Shown here: positions 6,924 through 24,991 of the stretch, one piece after another
How positions within the stretch are numbered: position 1 is the first letter of the stretch
Layout of the letters: the number at the start of each line of letters is the position of its first letter
Source of the DNA: a virus
Lineage: Duplodnaviria > Caudoviricetes
Length of the DNA: 27,838 nucleotides
Direction: 5' to 3' (one strand)
IMG/VR virus record: IMGVR_UViG_3300020044_001319
Coordinates: 1 to 27,838 of that record
The notes under the pieces: model-generated
Databases searched by the model: none
What the model saw: the letters and a program-made list of their open reading frames with translations, nothing else
Told to the model about the DNA's origin: nothing
Position numbers and translations under genes: made by a program

Positions 6924-8905
6924 TGACTCGGATTGTTTCGATTCAAACGAACTTCTCCAGCGGGGAGATCGACCCTTTGCTTCGTGCCAGGGTTGACCTG
7001 CAACAGTACCAGAACGGCGCAGAATCGCTTACAAACGTGGTGGTGCAACCCCAGGGTGGGGTAAAGCGTAGAAACGGTCTACGGCACATTTTTGAGATTC
7101 CTAGTGCGGCATCTCCCGCCAATGGAACCCGATCTGTTCCCTTCGAGTTCTCCGTTGACGATCACTATATGTTAGTGTTCGCTAACCAGCGGATGTATGT
7201 GTTCAAGAATAAAGCCTTGATCACGAACATCAATGGTAGCGGGAACGACTACGCAACGACGACGAACATCACCAGTTCGATCTTGTCCACCATGTGCTGG
7301 ACTCAGAGTGCTGATACTTTGATCATCACGCACAAGGACATCAGCCCGATCAAGATTGTTCGTGGGGCAACGGATGCAAGCTGGACTGTCAGCAATATCT
7401 CGTTTGTTGGTATTCCAAAATATCAATTCACGGCATCGTTATCAAATCCTGCCGCAACCCTGACTCCTTCTGCTGTTTCTGGCAGTGTCACATTGACTGC
7501 GAGTGCTTCTGTTTTTACGGCTGGAAGTGTTGGTCAATACATCAATGCAGACCCGCAGGGCAGAGCAAAAATTGTTTCTTATACCAGTGGCACTGTCGTT
7601 CGTGCTGTAACTGAAATTCCATTCTTCGATATCAGTGCCATTGCCAGTGGCTTTTGGGAACTTGAGGCTGGCTATGAAAACGTTTGGTCGTCAACCAAAG
7701 GCTGGCCTCGGACTGCTACGTTCCATGAGGGGCGGCTGTACTTTGGCGGCAGTAAGAGCCGTCCCTCTACCGTCTGGGGTAGCAAGGTCGGGCAGTTCTT
7801 TGACTTCCAGCCTGATCAAGCCTATGACGACGATGCTGTCGAGGCAACGCTAGATACCAACAGCCTGAACGTGATCATTGACATTATTAGTGGTCGTGAC
7901 TTGCAGGTGTTCACCAGCGGAGGTGAGTTCTACGTTCCGCAGCAGGGTCTGGAACCCATCACCCCGACCAACTTCTTTGTGAAGGCTATCAGCCGCAACG
8001 GTTCTCGTGAGGGTATTCGTTGCAACACATTGCAGTCTGGGACACTGTACATCCAACGCCAGGGCAAAACCCTCAACGAGTTCTTGTACAGCGACACAAC
8101 CCTGTCCTATGTCAGCCAGTCAATCAGTCTATTGTCTGGTCATCTGATCGTTTCTCCTGTCGAACTGGCACTGAGAAAGTCGATCAGTACCGACGAGGCA
8201 GACACACTGTACATCCTGAACGGCGATGGAACGATTGCCAACTACTCGGTTCTGCGTCAACAAAACGTGGTTGCACCCAGTAAATTGACAACGGATGGGC
8301 TGTTCAAAGACATTGGTGTGGACATTGAAGATACCTATGTCGTGGTTGCTCGGACGTTTAACGGAACGACCAAGTATTTCGTTGAAGTCTTTGAAACCGC
8401 ATTGTTCACAGACTGTGCGTTTACTGGTGGCGTTGCGACGACCATCACTGGACTGCCGCACATTGCCAAGGAACTGAACGTCATTGCTGATGGTTCTGTG
8501 CTGTCAAACGAGACTGTGAGTGGTGGTGGATCAATCACAATGGATCGAGCCAGCACGACCAGCTACGAGGTTGGCCTGCCGTTTAACATCTCTTTGGTGA
8601 CCCTGCCGATTGAGCCTCGCCTGTCTGCTGGTGTGCGTACCGGATTCGTGAAGCGTGTGGTGGAAGTCAATGCAATTCTGTACAAGACTCAGCACTTGCT
8701 GGTCAACGGCAACCTGGTTCCGATTCGGACGTTTGATACACAGAACATTCTGGACAACGATATGCCTGAGTTCACTGGAACGAAAACCGTGTCTGGTATC
8801 TCTGGATATGACCAGGATGGACAGATCACCATCTCACAGAATTTGCCTCTCAAGTTGAACCTGCTTGGTCTTGAGTACAAACTGTCTGTGTACGGAGGCA
8901 CATAA
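6923..8905 (+). CDS. Tail tubular protein B / nozzle (T7 gp12-like)
   Basis: 'QTNFSSGEIDPLL.AR.D...Y.NG...L.N....QGG..RR.G' and 'GWP...TFHEGRLYFGG...P..VWGSKVG.FFDF'; 660 aa. Confidence 0.88.
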   Translation: MTRIVSIQTNFSSGEIDPLLRARVDLQQYQNGAESLTNVVVQPQGGVKRRNGLRHIFEIPSAASPANGTRSVPFEFSVDDHYMLVFANQRMYVFKNKALITNINGSGNDYATTTNITSSILSTMCWTQSADTLIITHKDISPIKIVRGATDASWTVSNISFVGIPKYQFTASLSNPAATLTPSAVSGSVTLTASASVFTAGSVGQYINADPQGRAKIVSYTSGTVVRAVTEIPFFDISAIASGFWELEAGYENVWSSTKGWPRTATFHEGRLYFGGSKSRPSTVWGSKVGQFFDFQPDQAYDDDAVEATLDTNSLNVIIDIISGRDLQVFTSGGEFYVPQQGLEPITPTNFFVKAISRNGSREGIRCNTLQSGTLYIQRQGKTLNEFLYSDTTLSYVSQSISLLSGHLIVSPVELALRKSISTDEADTLYILNGDGTIANYSVLRQQNVVAPSKLTTDGLFKDIGVDIEDTYVVVARTFNGTTKYFVEVFETALFTDCAFTGGVATTITGLPHIAKELNVIADGSVLSNETVSGGGSITMDRASTTSYEVGLPFNISLVTLPIEPRLSAGVRTGFVKRVVEVNAILYKTQHLLVNGNLVPIRTFDTQNILDNDMPEFTGTKTVSGISGYDQDGQITISQNLPLKLNLLGLEYKLSVYGGT

Positions 8906-9402
8906 TGGAAGCAGTAGCAATTATTGGAGCAATCGTATCTGCATCAGCACAGATACAACAGGCCGAACAACAAGCGTCCTCTATGCGTCTTCAGGCGCAA
9001 CAAGCTGAATTGCAAGGTCGTCAGAATGCCTTGAACTACAACCGACAGGCTAACGAAATCTTTATGCGTCAGCAACGTCTTGGTTCAACTGTTCGCGCTC
9101 GTGCCGCCGCTGGTGGAGTCGATCCGTTTACTGGTAGCCCATTGACGGTTGACCAGATGAATGCTCAGAAGGCAGGTCGTGAGTTCCAGATCAGCGTTGA
9201 GAATGCAGAGATGGCAAGGTCTGGTGGACTTGCACAATCTCAGGCTCTGTACTCTGCTGCAAGTTCTGCTGAACACATTGGCTACATGAAAGCAATTGGT
9301 ACGGTTGCGATGGGAACTGCAATGTCTCAACAGTATGCAACTCCAAACAATGCTCCAGTCTTTGATAGGAGTATGCCTGATCCAACTATTGCAAGGGGTT
9401 AA
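8905..9402 (+). CDS. Internal virion / ejection protein (T7 gp14-like)
   Basis: Ala/Gln-rich with a hydrophobic N-terminus and 'RARAAAGGVD...GSP'. Follows the nozzle gene. Confidence 0.7.
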   Translation: MEAVAIIGAIVSASAQIQQAEQQASSMRLQAQQAELQGRQNALNYNRQANEIFMRQQRLGSTVRARAAAGGVDPFTGSPLTVDQMNAQKAGREFQISVENAEMARSGGLAQSQALYSAASSAEHIGYMKAIGTVAMGTAMSQQYATPNNAPVFDRSMPDPTIARG

Positions 9403-9404
9403 CA

Positions 9405-11117
9405 ATGCCTGAATTGCCCCGCTATGAAAATATAGGCGTTCAGTACGCTGATCTGCCCAGAATCTCCACCGCCCCGCAACAAGTCCGGGCGCAAGGTCTT
9501 GCTGACATTGGCGCACAGATTGATCGGATGACATCGTTCTTCCAGAATCAGGCTGCACGAGAGGCTGAGAAAGCTGCACTGAAATACGCAGTTGAGTTCC
9601 CGCCTACTCAAGAACAACTGGAATTAGCCAAGCAAACTGGCGAGATGCCAAAGATCGAGGGTGCTGGTCGAATCTTCCAAGAAACTTACAACAAGGCTTC
9701 TGCCCACATTCTTGGTAGCGAGTTGCTGACTCAGTTCCAGAACCGTCAGTCTGACCGTCTGATGCGTATGGAGCGTGGTGAGGTCATTGATCCGGTGCAG
9801 TTCCAGAAGGACTTGCGTGACGACATTGATGGCACGACTGCCGTACTGACATCACTTGATCCTGAGACATCTATCCGGTTCAAAGCCCAGATGTCCACGG
9901 TGGGCCATGCTGCTTACAAGCAGGCGCTGGTGTTTGACGAGAAGGCTCGTCAGGCTACCTACATTGCTGACATTGAACAATCTTTGCAGAAGATTCGCGC
10001 TCCTATTGAGAACGTGATTAAGTCATATCTTCAGCCTGGCGTTGATCCTGATACTGGTCAGATGCGGCCTGGTTTGCCAATGGATCAACTGGAGACTGTG
10101 TTGCAAAACATGATCTCTCCGTACACCAGTGCAACCAGCATTCGCATGGCTGGTGGTAATAAGTACGCTCTGGAAGCCTACAAGATTATTGAGACTGCAA
10201 AGGTTGGCGCACTGGTTGGTCAAATGACTGATCGGACGTTTGCACCTAATGCTGGCGTTGCTGCTCAGAAGTTGCTTTCCGGTGATGCAGGCAACCTGAC
10301 TCCTTTGCTTAGCAACCTCACGCAGGAGGCAAAAGACAAGTTGCGTGAGACTGTGATCAAGTCTTACTCAGATATTGAGTCTCTGCGTAAGATTACCGAG
10401 GCTGAAAGCAAGGCGGCAAACAAAGACAAGTTCAAGCCAATGGTGCTTGAGATGCTGAATCCCAATACATCTCAGAAACGCAAGATCGAGATTGCGGCAA
10501 TGGGTATTGAACTTGAGCAGATGACTCCTGACCAGGCGATTGCGTTTACCAAGCCGCAAAAGCCAGAGGCCAATCCTGTTCTGTTTGCACAAATCTATGA
10601 CGGTGTTGTGCGTGGTCAGTACAAAAATGTTGGCGAACTGACTCAATTTTCCAGAAGCCTATCTGAGGGTGAGTTCCATACGCTGACTCGCTCACTGGTG
10701 GATAAGGGCCATCAGAAGGCTATTAGCGATCTGACTATTGAGGCTGGAATTACCAGCGCATTCATTGATCCTGGACTTGAGAAACTCAAGAAAAAGCAGA
10801 AGCTGATTGACTTGTTTACCGAGGAACTTGGTAAGAAGGCTCCTAATGACCAGGGTGTTTTGACCTACCAAACCCCTCAACAAGCAACCGAAAAAGCCAT
10901 TGATCGGTACAAGAACGATAAGTTGATTACAGATGCACAGACTGCTCGTGATGGTGCAATGAAGACAATTAACTCTGTGTTCGACAAGAATCCTAATCTT
11001 GTGAAACCTAACTTGCCGATTGAGCAATGGGATTTCACCAAGATCAAAGGCATAGATTCTGAGACTGCTCGTCGCTTGAAGCAACAGCAAGACATCTATA
11101 ACAAAAATCTTAGGTGA
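9405..11117 (+). CDS. Putative internal virion / ejection protein (gp15 position)
   Basis: 570 aa, helical composition, 'MPELPRY' N-terminus; assigned mainly by synteny. Confidence 0.6.
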   Translation: MPELPRYENIGVQYADLPRISTAPQQVRAQGLADIGAQIDRMTSFFQNQAAREAEKAALKYAVEFPPTQEQLELAKQTGEMPKIEGAGRIFQETYNKASAHILGSELLTQFQNRQSDRLMRMERGEVIDPVQFQKDLRDDIDGTTAVLTSLDPETSIRFKAQMSTVGHAAYKQALVFDEKARQATYIADIEQSLQKIRAPIENVIKSYLQPGVDPDTGQMRPGLPMDQLETVLQNMISPYTSATSIRMAGGNKYALEAYKIIETAKVGALVGQMTDRTFAPNAGVAAQKLLSGDAGNLTPLLSNLTQEAKDKLRETVIKSYSDIESLRKITEAESKAANKDKFKPMVLEMLNPNTSQKRKIEIAAMGIELEQMTPDQAIAFTKPQKPEANPVLFAQIYDGVVRGQYKNVGELTQFSRSLSEGEFHTLTRSLVDKGHQKAISDLTIEAGITSAFIDPGLEKLKKKQKLIDLFTEELGKKAPNDQGVLTYQTPQQATEKAIDRYKNDKLITDAQTARDGAMKTINSVFDKNPNLVKPNLPIEQWDFTKIKGIDSETARRLKQQQDIYNKNLR

Positions 11118-11120
11118 TCC

Positions 11121-12347
11121 ATGAGCATCGAAAAAGAACTGAGACAGAATTGGGATAGCGTGGTCTATCCCGAGCCAGATGTTCCAGAGCCGCCTATGTT
11201 GTTAGCGGCTGCTCCTGCTGACCAGACGGTGGTTAGCGATGCTGGCGCTGGTCGTGGTTCGTATGCTGGATACAACCCTAGAGCAGCACAGTTGAATCTT
11301 GAGCCACAAGCCAAGATGGAGTCTTACGATCCGACTGTCCGTCAAAAGATTGCTGATTTCTTACAAGCTGGCTTTGAGGCATTTGGTACTCCTCGCTATC
11401 AGGCCAGAAAGAATGCTCAGACGATCATGGGTGGAGAGTCCAGCAATCTGCCGCTGAACATGGGCATTGCTGACATCATTCCATTATTGGGTACTGGTAT
11501 GCAGACTCAGGAAGCTGTGCGTACTGGAGAGGAAGCTGTGCAATCCTTGCAGGCTGGTGAGCCTGGTAAAGCAGCATTGCAGGCTGGTGCTGCCGCATTG
11601 GGAATGATTCCTGGTGCTGTTGGTACGGCAAATGTACTGAAGCAAATCAAGCAGTCAAAGAAGTTCAAGCAACTTGAACCTACTGCTGCTGACAATCTGA
11701 AGATAATGCTAAATGAAGCAGATCAGATTAAGCCTCAGTTCGACCAGATAAACCGTGACATTGCTGAAAAAGTTGGTGGTACTTATAAAGCTGCACCAGT
11801 CAAAGGCGTTGATCGTGTGATTGAGAAAAGCGTTGCTGAGTATGGTGGTGATGTTACTCAGATCAAAGACTTGGTTCGCTCAACGATCATCGTCGATAGT
11901 CAGCAAAAGATTGATGATGCTATCAAGATGATTTCAGAAAAATACGAGATCAATCCTGATACATCGAGAAACCTGTTCAATCCCAATGCTGTTGCGTCAA
12001 AGGATGGCTACCGGGATGCCAAGTTCAACGTCATGCTGGATGGCGGCATGGCAATGGAAATCCAGATCAATACGCCACAAATGATGATGGCAAAGGACAA
12101 AGTTCACGATCTGTATAAAGAACGTAGAACTATAGAAGCAAAACTGGTAAAGGAGAAGCGCGATCCAACCCAGGACGAGTTGGTGGAAATCAGCAGGTTG
12201 AATGCTGAGATGAAGTCTATTTATGACGCTGCTTTTGAAGATTCGAGCAAGTCTGCGAATTCTTCTTTGGATAGCGGCTTGCCATTGCGTCGAGCAGAGT
12301 CTGGGTCAAACCAGCGAGATTCTGGCTTATCCCAGGCGGCTGAGTAA
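11121..12347 (+). CDS. Putative ejection protein with a C-terminal RelA/SpoT-like nucleotidyltransferase (alarmone synthetase-like) domain
   Basis: Motifs in synthetase order: PVKGVDRVIEK (aa ~226), KDLVRSTII (~250), GYRDAKFNV (~296), EIQINT (~313), HDLYK. The N-terminal half has Gly/Ala-rich hydrophobic helices. Located inside the internal-virion gene cluster. Confidence 0.8.
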   Translation: MSIEKELRQNWDSVVYPEPDVPEPPMLLAAAPADQTVVSDAGAGRGSYAGYNPRAAQLNLEPQAKMESYDPTVRQKIADFLQAGFEAFGTPRYQARKNAQTIMGGESSNLPLNMGIADIIPLLGTGMQTQEAVRTGEEAVQSLQAGEPGKAALQAGAAALGMIPGAVGTANVLKQIKQSKKFKQLEPTAADNLKIMLNEADQIKPQFDQINRDIAEKVGGTYKAAPVKGVDRVIEKSVAEYGGDVTQIKDLVRSTIIVDSQQKIDDAIKMISEKYEINPDTSRNLFNPNAVASKDGYRDAKFNVMLDGGMAMEIQINTPQMMMAKDKVHDLYKERRTIEAKLVKEKRDPTQDELVEISRLNAEMKSIYDAAFEDSSKSANSSLDSGLPLRRAESGSNQRDSGLSQAAE

Positions 12348-12424
12348 GGATGTCCCTTGACAACACCAATGGTCACCGGGATGCCTTCGACATTAAAGAA
12401 CTCAGTTGTATCTGGAAAGTCCAT
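12221..12424 (-). CDS. Small acidic protein antisense to the RelA-like gene; candidate immunity protein / antitoxin
   Basis: 67 aa with a strong AGGAGGT RBS (12429-12435, - strand) and its own promoter. It is the only credible - strand gene in the 22 kb late region. Function is inferred from context only. Confidence 0.7.
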   Translation of the reverse strand: MDFPDTTEFFNVEGIPVTIGVVKGHPYSAAWDKPESRWFDPDSARRNGKPLSKEEFADLLESSKAAS

Positions 12425-12443
12425 GATTACCTCCTGCTTGACT

Positions 12444-12484
12444 AGTGTACCAAAGTATTGTAATCAGTACAAACACAGATACAA
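12444..12484 (-). promoter_or_regulatory. Tandem sigma70-type promoters for the antisense gene
   Basis: On the - strand: TTGTAC (12472-12467), 17 nt, TACACT (12449-12444) with a TGn extension. Second candidate: TTGTAT (12484-12479), 16 nt, TACAAT (12462-12457). Confidence 0.6.
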
Positions 12485-12507
12485 TACCACAAACTGGAGC
12501 CTTGACA

Positions 12508-15453
12508 ATGGCTAATGCCCCACTTGATCAAAGATTAGACAAGATCGCTCAATCTGCCGCTGACTTTGAGCAGGGTTCCGAGGGAACGGTCTTGCCGTCT
12601 TCTGATCAGGATGTCCAGCAGGTAGGTCAGACTACCGGGGAAATGGCGCTGGAGCCTGACTTCCAGGTTGCTGGTGGCCTGCCTAGTGAGATTCTTAAAA
12701 GGCTCACCAAGGTCGATATTCGCGCCCCTAAGACTCCTGCCGTAACTCCTGAAGCCGCGACATCAGTTGTTATTGAAGACACCGCCAAAGCCGCCGTAGC
12801 GTCTGGCGTTGCCGACAGCCCGACAACGGCAAAAATTGCCGCCAAGATCGAGACTGGTAAAAAGCCTGAGATAACTCCACAAGCATTCTCGTCTGAGCGC
12901 AAGGACGTTGCTGACCTGAGAGCGACGACTGACCCGGCAATGGAGAAGCCGCCAGAGACTGCCTTCAATCTGCCTGTCATGCAGACCACTGAGGACATCA
13001 AGACCACTGTGGAAACGATGGCTCGGATGGGTGGCGTTGAAACCAAGACGATCACATTCGACGATGTTCGTGCCGCTGCGGAAAACGCTGGTCTTGGCCC
13101 TAAGTTCATTGATGACCTGACTAGCAACAAACTCCAGGTCAATCCTGAAAACACCTTCAAGGCACTGAATGCGATGGTTGCCAGTGCCAAGCATCTGGAT
13201 GGACTTGCCGCCAAGGTATCCAATGGAACTGCTACTCCTACCGAGTTGGCAGAGATGGCACAGACCATCCATTTCCACAACCTGCTCCAACAAAGCGTTA
13301 AGGGTTACCAGACCAACGTGGCGCAATCTTTGGCTGTCATGCGTATGCCGCGAGATGGCGCTGTGGATATTTCTACGATCCTGGAGAACTTTGGCAATGA
13401 GACTGATATTGTCAAGTTCGCGCAAGCCTATAACAACCTGAAGACTCCTGAAGGTAAGGCAGAACTTATCAAGGGAATGGCTCAAGGAAATCCTTGGGAA
13501 AAGCTGTTCACTGTGTATGTGAACGGCATATTGTCCCGGCCTGGAACTCAGATCAAGAACGCACTGAGCAACACCATTTTCCTGCCGTACCGCATGGCAG
13601 AGCGCACCACTGCCGCAGCCGCAGGTACGTTACGCCGTGGCATTGGTCTTGGCGCTGACGAGTCTTATGAGTTGATGGAAGTGCCGACCATGTTGGCATC
13701 GACTGGTCTTGCCGTTAAGAATGGCCTTGAGTTGATGGCATATGCTTTCAACAATGGTGTGCCAAAAGGCTGGACTGACCCGACCAAAATTGCTCGTCAG
13801 CAAGCCAGAATGGATCTGATCAACTTCAAAGACGATGGTTCTTTGTTGAGTACTGGTATCAAGGCAATCAACTTTGTTACGACTCTGCCTGGTCGCAGTC
13901 TGATGTCTGCTGATGAGTTCTTCAAAGGTGTGAACTATACATATGAGTTGGCGGCAGAAACGACTCGTGTTGGTATTCGTGCATATGACGATGCACTGAA
14001 AGCTGGTGGTGATATTCCTACCGCACTCAAGGCACAATCTGACGCAATTGATCAGTTCACGTTAAGCCCCCCTGACTACATTACTGGTCTTGCAGAGGTT
14101 GGTACGTTTACCCAAAAGTTAACAGGAACCATTGGGGAGATGCAAGCCTCAATGAATCCGAACAGTGCTACCGGGTTTGCCTTGCGTACCCAGATGCCAT
14201 TTATTTCAACACCTGTCAACGTGATGGGCGAGGTTGTTTCGCGTACTCCTCTGGCGTTTGCAACAAAGTCATTCTATTCAAACATTGCGGCTGGTGGCAA
14301 AGAGGCAGACATGGCGATGGCAAAGGTTGGAATGTCCAGCGCAGCCATCTACAGTTTTTCGCAATTGGCAACCAATGGAACCATCACTGGTTCTGGCCCC
14401 GGCGACAAGGGAACCAGACAGGCAATGGAGCGCCAGGGCTGGCAACCGTACAGCTTTGTGGTTGACACCAGCGGCATGAAAGAGGATGTGCGTGATCTGT
14501 TCTCGCAGTTCCCCGGCAGTGTTCGCTTTGGTTCTGGCGACTACTCTGGCAAGGTATTCCTGTCCTACCAAGGCATGGAGCCTGTTGGCGCTCTGATGGC
14601 CATCGGAGCCGACTATGTTGACTATGCTCGGTACGAGCAGGACGACAGTCGCTTGAATGCCTATGTTGGTGGGGCGGTGTTTGGCGTTGCCAACTATATG
14701 CTTGAGCATCCTTTCCTGACTGGTGTCGGAAACATTGCTGCTTTGGTTGGTGGAAATATCCCCAACAGCCGAGAGCATCTGGTCAACATCATCAACGGTG
14801 TGGCAAAGATTGGAACGACCACTGCTCTCAAGGCAGTTGAGCCTTTGAGTGGCTTTATTACCAGCACCAAGGAAAAGGTCGATCCCCTGCGTCGAGACTA
14901 TCAAGCTGATCCCAATCTTGGTGCTGGCATCAAGGGTGTGATGGATGCCTTGAACAAGTGGAGAAGCGAAACTCCTGGCTTGTCTCAAGACTTGCCTCCT
15001 ATGTTGAACATCTGGTCTGAGCCTGTCCAGCATGAGTTCTCATGGTCGCCACTTCGCATGAAGGCTGGAAAGCAGAATGAAGTTGATCAGGCTTTGATCC
15101 AGTTGAATGCAAACATTGCCATGCCTGGTCGTCAGTTGTCCATGAAAGACCCTGACACTGGCATCAACTCCAATACCAAACTGACTGCTGAGGAATACAA
15201 CGAAATGTTGCGTATTGCTAACGGACCGTTGGAACTCGAAAAGCGTGTCACTGCCGTGGTTGACTTGATCAAGCAGGACGCTGGTCGCAATGATCTGATA
15301 CGTTATCAGAACATGATCAGTTCTGTGTTCAGTGACACTTTTGAAGATGCCAGAAAGATTCTGGCGAATGACAGTCTTTACGCACAAGACATCCAGCAAC
15401 GTATCCGAGATAAAGCGCAACGCCTGAAAGAATTTGGCAAAGGAGCAAGATAA
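12508..15453 (+). CDS. Large internal virion / DNA ejection protein (gp16 position)
   Basis: ~980 aa; ATG at 12508 with GGAG at 12496-12499. 'ILS.P.T.IKN..SN', 'DEFFK', 'PFISTPVN' and 'ITGSGP.D...R.....GWQPYS' are typical of podovirus large ejection proteins. Directly precedes the tail fibre. Confidence 0.75.
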   Translation: MANAPLDQRLDKIAQSAADFEQGSEGTVLPSSDQDVQQVGQTTGEMALEPDFQVAGGLPSEILKRLTKVDIRAPKTPAVTPEAATSVVIEDTAKAAVASGVADSPTTAKIAAKIETGKKPEITPQAFSSERKDVADLRATTDPAMEKPPETAFNLPVMQTTEDIKTTVETMARMGGVETKTITFDDVRAAAENAGLGPKFIDDLTSNKLQVNPENTFKALNAMVASAKHLDGLAAKVSNGTATPTELAEMAQTIHFHNLLQQSVKGYQTNVAQSLAVMRMPRDGAVDISTILENFGNETDIVKFAQAYNNLKTPEGKAELIKGMAQGNPWEKLFTVYVNGILSRPGTQIKNALSNTIFLPYRMAERTTAAAAGTLRRGIGLGADESYELMEVPTMLASTGLAVKNGLELMAYAFNNGVPKGWTDPTKIARQQARMDLINFKDDGSLLSTGIKAINFVTTLPGRSLMSADEFFKGVNYTYELAAETTRVGIRAYDDALKAGGDIPTALKAQSDAIDQFTLSPPDYITGLAEVGTFTQKLTGTIGEMQASMNPNSATGFALRTQMPFISTPVNVMGEVVSRTPLAFATKSFYSNIAAGGKEADMAMAKVGMSSAAIYSFSQLATNGTITGSGPGDKGTRQAMERQGWQPYSFVVDTSGMKEDVRDLFSQFPGSVRFGSGDYSGKVFLSYQGMEPVGALMAIGADYVDYARYEQDDSRLNAYVGGAVFGVANYMLEHPFLTGVGNIAALVGGNIPNSREHLVNIINGVAKIGTTTALKAVEPLSGFITSTKEKVDPLRRDYQADPNLGAGIKGVMDALNKWRSETPGLSQDLPPMLNIWSEPVQHEFSWSPLRMKAGKQNEVDQALIQLNANIAMPGRQLSMKDPDTGINSNTKLTAEEYNEMLRIANGPLELEKRVTAVVDLIKQDAGRNDLIRYQNMISSVFSDTFEDARKILANDSLYAQDIQQRIRDKAQRLKEFGKGAR

Positions 15454-18170
15454 TGGCTTACCCGATTTCGAATGTCTCACGACGAGTCCAGTACACTGGT
15501 AGTGCTGGTGTTGGTCCGTACTCATTTACATTTGAGATTCTTGCCAATACCGACATTGCTGTTTACAAGAACACTACATTGCTGACGTTGACCACGGATT
15601 ACACCGTAACGATCAACTCCAATGGCACTGGCTCTGTGACGCTTGTGTCTGCTGCAACTGGTTCAGATACTGTCACCATTTATGGTTCTCGCGCACTACA
15701 GAGAACGTCTGATTTTGTGACTGGTGGCGACCTATTTGCCAACACGCTGAACGACGAACTCGATAGCCTGGTCATCTTCACTCAGCAGAACAAAGAGGAA
15801 ATTGATCGCTCATTGCAAGCGCCAGTGACTGACCCGACCACCATCGACATGACGCTTCCAGGCGCAGCTTTGCGTGCTGGCAAGCTGCTCGCCTTCAATG
15901 CAACTACAGGCAACGCAGAGGCTGGGCCTGACATCTCCAACTTCACTGGCATCTACCAGGGATCACTCGCATCTGCACCAGCAACGCGCTTTGACACCAC
16001 TGCGCTGCAAGCTGGTGACTTGTACTTTGACACCACGTCAGATAGCATGCGGGTTTACACGGGCGGCGCTTGGCAAGAGATCGCGCCAGAGATGGCTATT
16101 GGCCACCAAGCTTACACGGCAACCGCAGGTCAGACCACCTTCAGCGTCACCGACGGCTACAACACTAGTTCAGTCTATGTCTATCTGAACGGCGTGCTGC
16201 TGGATGCCGCCGACTACACGGCCACCAATGGAACATCAATCGTGTTGGGCAGCGGTGCTGCACTGAATGACACCGTGCGCGTGGTGACCTACTTCAACCC
16301 TGTTGACACCATCTCGATCAGGAACGCAGCAGCGGCATCTGCGGCAGCAGCTGCTACCTCGGCCAGCAACGCTTCAACATCGGCGACCAATGCGGCCTCA
16401 TCTGCTAGCACGGCATCGACTCAGGCAAGCAACGCCAGCACCTCGGCTACTAATGCGGCCAACTCTGCGACTGCAGCATCTGGCTCTGCTAGCACGGCCA
16501 GCACTGCGGCCACTAACGCATCGAACTCTGCAACCGCTGCAGCTACATCGGCCACCAGCGCTAGCAATAGCGGAAGTTCAGCAAGCACCTCTGCCACCAA
16601 TGCTGCAAGCTCTGCGTCATCGGCAAGCACTAGCGCAACCAATGCGTCTAATAGCGCAAGCAGTGCATCATCGTCTGCAAGCACTGCTACCACCCAGGCC
16701 AGCAATGCTACGTCTGCAGCATCGAATGCTGCGAGTTCTGCACTGAATGCTTTGATCAGTGTAAACGCAGCAGCCAACAGCGCCACTGCTGCAGCTGCGT
16801 CTGCCGCCGCTGCTGCCGCCAGTTTTGATGCCTTTGATGATATCTATCTAGGCGCTAAGAGTTCTGACCCCTCTGTCGACAACGATGGCAATGCGTTGAC
16901 TACTGGCGACCAGTACTTCAACACGGTGGCCAATGAACTTCGCATCTGGAATGGATCGGCCTGGCAAGCAGCCGCCGTTGTTGGCGGCACGGTGAATACC
17001 ATTGCTGTAAACACTAGCGCCACATTGAACTACGGCACAGCCAACGCAGTAGCGTATCTCAACGGCTCCAAGGTAATCACCACTGGTTCTGCTCTGGTCT
17101 TTGATGGAACTAATCTTGGGGTTGGTACTACAAGTCCTGCTTATAAGTTGGATGTTTCTAACACATCCGCTGGAGCCTATGTTGTTTCAAGAGTAAATAA
17201 TCTGAGCGCAACAGGCTACACTCGTTTGTTGTTTGAAATTGGCTCAAATGGTGCAAATGGTTCAGCAGATATTAGCTATGTACCTGGAACATTTTTTGCG
17301 GTTGGACCTTCAAGCAACGATACTACAACACCTATTGTTTTTAGAAATAACAATGCCACAGAACGTGCCCGTATAGACTCCTCCGGCAACCTTGGACTGG
17401 GTGTTACTCCGAGTGCTTGGGGTAGTAGCTGGAAAGCAACTCAAAGCGGTGCTGTGGGCGCACTTGCTAGTACAGGTTCAGGTTCTACTGTTCCAACCGC
17501 CGTGGTTTTAGGCGCTTACAACGACAACACAAACTGGAAATATCAATATACAGGTGTTGGTGCAGCTCGTTATGAAATGACAGGAGCAAATGCAGGAAGT
17601 ACCCACGCTTGGTATATTTCAGCAGGCGGCACAGCAGGTAACGCCATAACGTTCACCCAAGCAATGACACTAGACTCCTCCGGTAACTTGTTAGTGGGGA
17701 CTACAACTGCTAGTTATTTGCTTACACAAGGCATGGTTGTAAAAAACCCAAATGACATTGAGACATATGTAGCTGTTGGGCACAAAACAGGTTCTGGTAG
17801 TGGGTCTTCCTTTTTTATTGCATCGTACAACGGTGGCCTTATTGGAAATATCACGCAAAACGGCACGACAGGCGTTTCATACAACACTTCTTCCGATTAC
17901 CGTTTAAAAAACATTGATGGGCCTTTAACTGGTTCAGGTGCATTTATTGATGCTTTGAAGCCAAAAAGTGGAACTTGGAAAGCTGATGGTTCTAAGTTTG
18001 TCGGCTTCTTGGCTCACGAAGTTCAAGAAGTTTCGCCTGGTTCTGTGGTAGGCGAAAAAGATGGAGAACAAATGCAAGCAATGGAATATGGTTCCGCTGA
18101 ATTTATCGCCAACATCATTGCTGAATTGCAATCCCTCCGCGCTCGCGTGGCTCAACTTGAAGGACAATAA
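15453..18170 (+). CDS. Tail fibre protein with an N-terminal adaptor domain and a C-terminal intramolecular chaperone (peptidase S74)
   Basis: N-terminal 'YSFTFEI....DI.VY...LTLTTDYTV...R...LNDELD' (T7 gp17-N-like); Ala/Ser/Thr stalk; 'GNLGLG/GNLLVGTT' repeats; 'TSSDYRLKN' autocleavage site, 'GFLAHEVQEV.P..V.G' and a terminal coiled coil. Confidence 0.9.
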   Translation: MAYPISNVSRRVQYTGSAGVGPYSFTFEILANTDIAVYKNTTLLTLTTDYTVTINSNGTGSVTLVSAATGSDTVTIYGSRALQRTSDFVTGGDLFANTLNDELDSLVIFTQQNKEEIDRSLQAPVTDPTTIDMTLPGAALRAGKLLAFNATTGNAEAGPDISNFTGIYQGSLASAPATRFDTTALQAGDLYFDTTSDSMRVYTGGAWQEIAPEMAIGHQAYTATAGQTTFSVTDGYNTSSVYVYLNGVLLDAADYTATNGTSIVLGSGAALNDTVRVVTYFNPVDTISIRNAAAASAAAAATSASNASTSATNAASSASTASTQASNASTSATNAANSATAASGSASTASTAATNASNSATAAATSATSASNSGSSASTSATNAASSASSASTSATNASNSASSASSSASTATTQASNATSAASNAASSALNALISVNAAANSATAAAASAAAAAASFDAFDDIYLGAKSSDPSVDNDGNALTTGDQYFNTVANELRIWNGSAWQAAAVVGGTVNTIAVNTSATLNYGTANAVAYLNGSKVITTGSALVFDGTNLGVGTTSPAYKLDVSNTSAGAYVVSRVNNLSATGYTRLLFEIGSNGANGSADISYVPGTFFAVGPSSNDTTTPIVFRNNNATERARIDSSGNLGLGVTPSAWGSSWKATQSGAVGALASTGSGSTVPTAVVLGAYNDNTNWKYQYTGVGAARYEMTGANAGSTHAWYISAGGTAGNAITFTQAMTLDSSGNLLVGTTTASYLLTQGMVVKNPNDIETYVAVGHKTGSGSGSSFFIASYNGGLIGNITQNGTTGVSYNTSSDYRLKNIDGPLTGSGAFIDALKPKSGTWKADGSKFVGFLAHEVQEVSPGSVVGEKDGEQMQAMEYGSAEFIANIIAELQSLRARVAQLEGQ
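16327..16822 (+). repeat. Low-complexity Ala/Ser/Thr/Asn heptad-like repeat in the tail fibre
   Basis: Recurring ASTSATN / AASSAS units over ~165 aa. The repeat is degenerate at the nucleotide level. Confidence 0.85.
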
Positions 18171-24399: not shown

Positions 24400-24948
24400 T
24401 CATGCTGCCAACCGTCCGACAGCGCCGTAGCCGTAGCCATCGTCGCCCAGGAACTTGACGCTTTCTGCTGTCTTGCTTTCCTTGATTTCCACCAGGGTGA
24501 ACTCCTCGACTTTCCGAGCAACCCGAGTCTCGTTGTCGTAGTTGGCAGTTCTGGCAATGTAAGCACCGAAGGGAGCATCGACAACTGGAATCTCAGTCAC
24601 AGGATAGCCGTAGTATTTGCAAGCAAACTCGACAGCAGTCTCAAGGAAAGCCTTGGTGTATTTCCGATTGACGAACACGAAGTCAGCGCCGAACCGGACT
24701 TCCTCGCCGTTGAGACTGGTGTAGTTGCTGCCCTTGTAGTCGGTCATGCCATCAAAGTACGAACCCTCGAAGACCGAGACAACCGACTTGACTTGGCTGC
24801 AAGTCGGACCGTTTTCGTATTTGATGTTGATAGAAGCGCCGCCGCTGTAGACGTTCGACTTGACGCTGAACTTGACGCCAGGGAATGCTTCTTTGAGAGC
24901 AGCCCGGATCAGCTTGGCAGTCTCGGCACAGGTAAGGTACTTGGTCAT
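24400..24948 (-). CDS. LPD29-like (large polyvalent protein-associated domain) early protein
   Basis: 'AETAKLIRAALKEAFPGVKFSVKS..YSGGASI.I....GP', 'F.G..FDGM.DY', 'FGADFVF..R'. GGAG RBS before the ATG at 24948. Confidence 0.72.
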   Translation of the reverse strand: MTKYLTCAETAKLIRAALKEAFPGVKFSVKSNVYSGGASINIKYENGPTCSQVKSVVSVFEGSYFDGMTDYKGSNYTSLNGEEVRFGADFVFVNRKYTKAFLETAVEFACKYYGYPVTEIPVVDAPFGAYIARTANYDNETRVARKVEEFTLVEIKESKTAESVKFLGDDGYGYGAVGRLAA

Positions 24949-24991
24949 TTCATTTCTCCATAGTTGGAAGGTTGATGAACACGGCAACATT

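Follow-up and report, generated by a model that had tools for sequence, protein, structure and literature searches.

The window analysed here, the whole stretch of 27,838 nucleotides, is a 27.8-kb virus record that is 83% complete, and the sequencing runs matching the locus were mostly labelled as freshwater metagenome. Its structural module follows a podovirus order: portal, scaffold, capsid, adaptor, nozzle, a gp14-like gene, a 570-aa gene, the ORF under study in the slot that follows, a gp16-like gene and the fibre. As originally predicted, the slot ORF at 11121-12347 exists on the plus strand and encodes 408 aa. The features of the locus are the following.

8905..9402, plus strand: gp14-like internal virion protein (phrog_418, E 7e-12)
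9405..11117, plus strand: gp15-like protein of 570 aa, labelled by position only; directly 5' of the carrier in relatives
11121..11648, plus strand: carrier domain, aa 1-~176, a likely internal virion or ejection protein, common to relatives with different cargoes
11673..12236, plus strand: Tas1/Apk-type pyrophosphokinase domain, aa ~185-372 (PF04607, Tas1 match, conserved columns)
12237..12347, plus strand: Ser/Gly-rich C-terminal tail of the toxin ORF, by its sequence for the most part a reverse-strand shadow cast by the antisense gene
12221..12424, minus strand: antisense ORF of 67 aa, predicted immunity protein, overlapping the toxin gene by 127 nt
12430..12435, minus strand: Shine-Dalgarno sequence AGGAGG, 5 nt 5' of the antisense ATG
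12444..12472, minus strand: predicted sigma70 promoter of the antisense gene, read from the sequence
12508..15453, plus strand: gp16-like internal virion protein (phrog_6651, E 3e-18), abutting the carrier stop in a cargo-less relative

Outside these features, the tail fibre contains a long Ala/Ser/Thr/Asn repeat stretch (window 16300-16800) and a C-terminal match to the Peptidase_S74 chaperone, and the early region encodes a stand-alone LPD29 protein, a polyvalent-protein-associated domain (window 24400-24990, minus strand), at a place that a small serine recombinase occupies in two relatives.

The slot ORF had been described as an extra gene inserted between gp15-like and gp16-like genes. 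The gp16-like assignment held, whereas the "gp15-like" label is positional, because Pfam and PHROG scans of that gene gave no match. The idea of an extra gene did not hold. To avoid circularity, loci were chosen by the gp16-like gene rather than by the carrier; from the best 80 of 241 such loci, 11 were excluded for too little upstream DNA, and a slot gene was found in all 69 that were scored, indicating that it is a fixed member of the cluster. The carrier profile matched in 50 of the 69 loci, 42 with a tail (some truncated) and 8 empty, and the other 19 all had a gene in the slot. Fifteen of these 19 unmatched slot genes still matched a profile of the N-terminal 40 aa of the carrier with scores of at least 16 bits, whereas eight controls did not exceed 4.4. 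Carrier residues 1-40 (window 11121-11240) are thus retained even where the rest of the carrier is replaced, and their sequence conservation makes a packaging or ejection signal possible.

The N-terminal part of the slot protein proved to be a polymorphic platform with a conserved N-terminus and an exchangeable C-terminal cargo, or none. Most of the 76 protein matches to the query covered only aa 1-~176, and single-linkage grouping of 73 proteins (the query among them) by their C-terminal parts gave 11 groups, which among the 26 matches scanned include DUF7178, two ART-PolyVal groups, PBECR5 and Apk. The cargo on the ~176-aa carrier is an ADP-ribosyltransferase, a nuclease, DUF7178, Apk or nothing. 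One protein (P0007) shares 96% identity with the query over aa 1-165, yet bears an ART-PolyVal cargo. Another relative (L002) has a stand-alone carrier of 188 aa, cargo-less and abutting gp16, whose DNA is 91.9% identical to the window up to 11515 and 91.3% from 12507; an intact relative (L183) stands at 87%. Furthermore, a contig that skips the cargo (joint 11494-12520) was present in two of four runs at depths of 55.7 and 13.8, together with Apk-region contigs at a depth of 3-5, which does not equal a share of cells; the empty and Apk forms thus occur together within one run in these two cases. Apk is a rare cargo, because it was absent from the best 80 of 241 gp16-like loci and from 80 carrier loci. 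The original prediction overlooked both this multi-cargo nature of the carrier and the 67-aa antisense gene.

The carrier matched no family in Pfam, PHROG and further family scans, and no protein of cultured phages. PT-TG, an Atlas lead for its identity (0.83), was not supported, being found in none of five genomes and giving no match in the carrier rows. Phage_Mu_F was not detected in the slot ORF by a scan that does detect MuF in two other loci (L060, L063), bearing out the proposal of a carrier other than MuF. Its place, between the nozzle, gp14 and gp15 genes and the gp16 and fibre genes, is that of an ejection protein, and on this sequence context the carrier is likely an internal virion or ejection protein. 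An RSH-fold pyrophosphokinase on a non-MuF carrier within an internal-virion gene cluster is what the locus encodes, as had been proposed. In RNA runs, contigs spanned only carrier, gp15 and gp16 pieces (three of three runs).

The C-terminal half had been proposed to hold a RelA/SpoT-like enzyme, and Pfam RelA_SpoT (PF04607) indeed matched aa 227-335 with 30.8 bits against a cut-off of 27 bits. The five ordered motifs were recovered (PVKGVDRVIEK at aa 226, KDLVRS at 249, GYRD at 296, EIQINT at 313 and HDLY at 329), and the catalytic D250 and E313 lie where they had been claimed. Alignment columns show K228, D250, R253, Y297, E313 and Q315 as conserved; because the locus search demanded GYRD, the conservation of that motif in the alignments is partly by construction. 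With the single enzyme domain as query, Tas1 (6OX6_A) was the sole significant PDB match (E 1.2e-10), and with a 40-sequence profile Tas1 (E 3e-25) led RelA by 22 orders of magnitude, the RelA, Rel and SAS chains reaching 5e-3 or worse. A match to phrog_7625 was confined to the enzyme domain, and a tree of 41 Apk domains was poorly resolved around the domain of the window.

The motif divergences from canonical RelA noted earlier are real, but most are Tas1/Apk signatures. Those in motif 1 and EIQ-x-N are Apk features because Tas1 has them too: its motif 1 likewise has no Arg before the Lys, and it shows EIQVN and RxT, and RxT is present here at syn2 (KDLVRST), as in Apk-type synthetases. In the single-domain alignment to Tas1, R253 and E313 align with R330 and E382 of Apk1, residues named in PMC12691689, given a 21-residue offset between the Tas1 chain and the numbering of that paper, which we infer. 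At syn3 the agreement ends. GxN is the Apk signature in the available text of PMC12226406 (N370 in Apk1), whereas the window has GYRDAK with K301 at the Asn position, which counts against assigning (p)ppApp as the product.

The original prediction allowed for an alarmone or a modified tRNA. Its alarmone part stands, narrowed to the Tas1/Apk (p)ppApp type, and its tRNA part is less favoured, no other solved structure coming near Tas1 in similarity; on sequence grounds this type is likely and the product is a prediction. The same cassette, delivered in the same way, might instead make (p)ppGpp, mixed alarmones or pyrophosphorylated tRNA, so that the host would be reprogrammed and its ATP not drained. 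We consider this unlikely, although GYRD-x-K resembles neither the SxH of RSH enzymes nor the GxN of Apk, motif swaps failed to redirect specificity (PMC12226406, available text), an enzyme structurally close to Apk1 produces both alarmones (PMC12691689, available text) and the hydrolases near one group of loci (L040-L044) are not of the Aph1 type. Weighing against it are the lead of Tas1 among solved relatives, the pairing of the small gene with Aph1-type hydrolases in two loci described below, and the motif YxxY, the mark of antitoxins of tRNA-modifying toxSAS (PMC11782079, available text), which was found in none of 33 members of the small-protein family.

As judged from the sequence, the last ~36 residues of the toxin consist largely of the antisense gene's reverse-strand shadow, and this shadow runs on beyond the toxin TAA at 12345-12347. 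Could the antisense ORF itself be a mere shadow of a conserved tail? This was rejected on account of sense-frame stops, co-oriented and orphan copies, the ribosome site and the promoter. The sense frame stops within the overlap region in the window and three other loci (L040, L048, L053) while the antisense frame is open throughout, and in other loci the sense frame carries two or three stops where the antisense frame is open; the phase of the overlap is identical in every antisense case listed. The pN/pS values of the antisense overlap (0.51 vs 0.59) do not separate the frames and are uninformative, because both frames share third positions.

Upstream of the small gene, a ribosome-site-like motif precedes the start in nearly all homologues. 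The predicted promoter consists of a -35 box TTGTAC (12472-12467), a 17-nt spacer and an extended -10 element TG-n-TACACT (12449-12444). By a sigma70-like score designed after the sequences had been seen, 28 of 31 representatives reached at least 8, against 3.5% of random windows, and the -10 box starts 25 nt 5' of the start codon in 21 of the 31; in the case of the window, the script returned a site at 38 nt with a tied score, and the one at 25 nt was read from the sequence. A generic promoter scan of the window returned two sites against 1.4 expected, the site of the antisense gene not being among them.

Linkage of the small gene to the enzyme is tight. When 61 viral Apk loci were retrieved by the enzyme alone and searched with a small-gene model that contained members from these loci, the small gene lay next to Apk on the opposite strand in 49, had the same orientation in 4 and was opposite but 2.3 kb away in 2, with 2 loci cut by a contig end and 4 having a weak or absent homologue; after clustering at 90%, the corresponding numbers were 31, 2, 1, 1 and 4 of 39. 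A first model built from four sequences had already found it in 44 of the 61. Conversely, among loci retrieved by the small protein, Apk was present in all 25 viral ones and in 17 of the 21 from metagenomes; among the four without Apk, two (L184, L185) have a hydrolase and the other two end at or near a contig edge. The carriers of Apk and the small gene, in the 30 of 40 scanned, comprise internal-virion-region proteins, portal fusions, a lysozyme fusion and polyvalent proteins of 1,000-3,500 aa, in which the cassette lies mid-protein. The Apk domain is fused to the phage portal protein at L048 5192-7507 and L051 4991-9511; in L050/L051 the antisense gene lies where the fusion ends, at a distance of 2.3 kb.

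The small-protein family has 368 representatives at 50% identity. The 67-aa protein is modelled as a compact domain of beta-strands and helix (pLDDT 87.7), and searches against Pfam, PDB chains, the Atlas and cultured phages gave no useful match. Tandem copies occur in 14 of 184 retrieved proteins, and in some longer proteins (P0117-P0134, P0228) the domain is tandem or terminal, partly beside membrane-like segments or TPR repeats.

Several arrangements suggest what the small protein does. In four loci (L060-L063) its homologue is a separate co-oriented gene that begins 5 nt after a MuF-fused Apk (identity 22-23% in the two homologues aligned), the slot that BcTis1/IapK occupy directly behind MuF-fused Apk2 (available text of PMC10083569, PMC12226406 and PMC11699363). 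In L184 and L185 (3-718 and 2776-3723) the small gene lies 5' of an Aph1-type HD hydrolase, with no Apk in the retrieved DNA; the hydrolase of L184 matches Aph1 (7SMG) at E 6e-18, with the next match at 1e-9, and keeps all six signature residues given for Aph1 in PMC10083569 (available text) in an alignment read by eye. In L185 a single open frame covers the small gene and the hydrolase and may encode a fused double-immunity protein. The hydrolases linked to Apk in the group of L043 and in Bordetella phage PHB04 are not of the Aph1 type, and the window, 83% of a complete record, contains no (p)ppApp or HD hydrolase. According to PMC11782079 (available text), antitoxins with YxxY are associated with tRNA-modifying enzymes, and Tis1-like antitoxins with (p)ppApp.

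From its linkage and the immunity-slot position of its homologues in MuF loci, the 67-aa protein is likely an immunity protein. Alternatively, the antisense gene could be real and yet encode a chaperone, an activator or a regulatory unit, or matter through its RNA alone; the small protein does have no sequence match to Tis1 or IapK, and convergent transcription might itself damp the toxin gene. This seems very improbable to us, as the co-oriented copies behind MuF-Apk, the orphans beside Aph1-type hydrolases and the tandem copies (14/184) are typical of immunity proteins, and the protein is modelled as a compact domain. Compared with PHB04 gp033, which occupies the canonical immunity slot, the match is weak (hhalign probability 1.9), and only a short C-terminal G-x-x-I-S-x-E-E motif is shared. 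In PHB04 (L178 8077-10342, gp034-gp032), an unannotated GYRD Apk-like gene lies 3' of the portal gene, with a small ORF and then an HD hydrolase after it; this order is the Apk2 layout and provides a ready test system in a cultured phage.

The locus most resembles the Apk2-IapK(BcTis1)-Aph1 MuF toxins of temperate phages (PMC10083569, PMC12226406, PMC11699363; available text), which likewise have a carrier from the structural region, a variable C-terminal toxin, a Tas1-like synthetase, a small linked immunity candidate and, in some relatives, an Aph1-type hydrolase. It differs in having a podovirus internal-virion slot gene in place of MuF, GYRD-x-K at syn3, and a small gene that is antisense, overlapping and apparently self-promoted with no hydrolase in the window, whereas iapK is co-oriented downstream and often followed by aph1. 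Apk1/Tas1-Tis1, the Pseudomonas aeruginosa type VI effector (6OX6), is the closest solved structure by sequence and shares the motifs K-x-x-x-R-x-x-x-K, KDL-x-R-x-T and EIQ-x-N, but it has a PAAR domain and a T6SS locus, whereas here there is no PAAR match, the context is a phage and the position of N370 is a Lys. The tRNA-pyrophosphorylating toxSAS (FaRel2, CapRel, PhRel; PMC11782079, available text) have the same catalytic fold and a far weaker match than Tas1, and are cell-resident toxin-antitoxin modules with YxxY pZFD antitoxins, unlike the partner found here.

RelA/SpoT domains on MuF and in phage polyvalent proteins have been published (PMC3482391, PMC5512222; available text). The polyvalent proteins of Iyer et al. 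2017 (PMC5512222) bring together RelA/SpoT, ART-PolyVal, PBECR, DdrB-ParB and LPD38 near virion genes and were predicted to be packaged, and the Apk cassette described here is also found inside such proteins; by contrast, the present carrier is small, bears one cargo and has an empty allele, and nested or antisense immunity genes are not described in the available text of that work. In the literature searched, which included few subscription papers, we found this carrier nowhere described, nor any virion toxin with an immunity gene that is antisense or overprinted, although the supplements of PMC5512222 and PMC10083569 could list such architectures; the toxin idea itself is known from MuF-Apk2. 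By its sequence, the system is likely a phage polymorphic toxin that belongs by membership to neither Apk1 nor Apk2 and probably works like Apk2.

Anatomy, cargo swapping and the tight linkage of enzyme and small gene across unrelated carriers are established by these data. Based on them, we propose, with a probability of about 60%, that the slot ORF is a swappable, predicted (p)ppApp toxin that is likely packaged and injected, and likely neutralised by the protein of the overlapping, self-promoted antisense gene. Host RNA polymerase would read the small gene independently of late transcription, so that the antidote would be present before the toxin is made. The carrier would bring the enzyme into the head, from which it would be ejected without its inhibitor, and in the newly infected cell a few copies may turn ATP/ADP into (p)ppApp. 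Even such a small injected dose could matter, given the turnover of about 100,000 per minute reported for related enzymes (PMC12691689, available text). Cells would recover if they already have the cassette or if the incoming DNA lets them express it; others would be arrested or killed. With antidote and promoter within the tail of the enzyme domain, both could move as a unit of ~0.8 kb, even into the middle of a long protein.

Another reading dispenses with injection: the toxin would work inside the cell that produces it, serving a temperate or plasmid-like phage as a module for addiction or against superinfection. A constitutive-looking promoter fits a resident genome, and both complete relatives annotated encode a small serine recombinase and an O-like initiator among the selected ORFs. 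Even so, we judge it unlikely, and slightly less probable than a different enzyme product, since the toxin ORF sits within the late structural gene run, a tyrosine integrase is absent from five of five complete relatives, and at the annotatable loci the domain lies on likely virion proteins, namely internal-virion-region genes, portal fusions, MuF and polyvalent proteins. Packaging and injection of phage polymorphic toxins are stated as open in PMC10083569, where co-injection is proposed as a hypothesis (available text); for the injection question, a natural comparison is offered by samples in which nearly identical phages occur both with the cargo and without it.

Overprinted small genes were also found in other cargoes. 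The tail of the DUF7178 cargo contains an ORF of 62-67 aa in the +1 frame in 17 of 19 loci, and the ~935-aa cargo group a different, 56-aa ORF in the +1 frame in 17 of 18 loci, each with a ribosome site and start codon; these counts leave out 13 loci, of which 12 were truncated by a contig end and one had its gene split. When regions of neighbouring genes served as controls, no more than 6 of 17 loci were supported. The pN/pS ratios of the nested frames were 0.44 and 0.41, against 1.19 and 1.45 for the host frames (12 and 9 sequences), which points to purifying selection on the nested frames, and the nested ORFs track their cargo onto divergent carriers. Together, these sequence patterns suggest that the nested ORFs of both groups are likely cognate antidotes. 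The same nested-gene filter also yielded families in two groups of two loci each, a weak signal in the ~750-aa group (3 of 7 loci) and nothing convincing in the ART cargo (4 loci), the ~646-aa group (8) or the empty carriers (3).

More tentatively, and with a good deal of doubt, the injected toxin with its antisense antidote may form an injection-coupled switch, in which the toxin arrives as protein and the antidote only as DNA under a host promoter, so that cells that cut or silence the genome would be poisoned and cells that accept it or bear a kin cassette spared; overprinted antidotes would then be general and unannotated in virion cargo, with at least three separate families here. Virion and polyvalent toxin domains may seem to lack immunity genes because such overprinted genes are easily missed by gene callers. 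A toxin domain with antidote and promoter in its own tail could be shuffled into virion proteins of any kind, and this would account for the mosaicism seen in virion and polyvalent proteins.

Examples of the nested ORFs are L106 7697-7894 (plus strand; DUF7178, within L105-L171) and L112 8597-8767 (plus strand; ~935-aa group), and those of the DUF7178 group have -10-like boxes upstream. Further cargo-specific small ORFs with ribosome sites were seen in the tails of L122/L139 and L215/L218 and at L166 6528-6737 (minus strand), one of them being convergent and lying just past the gene end.
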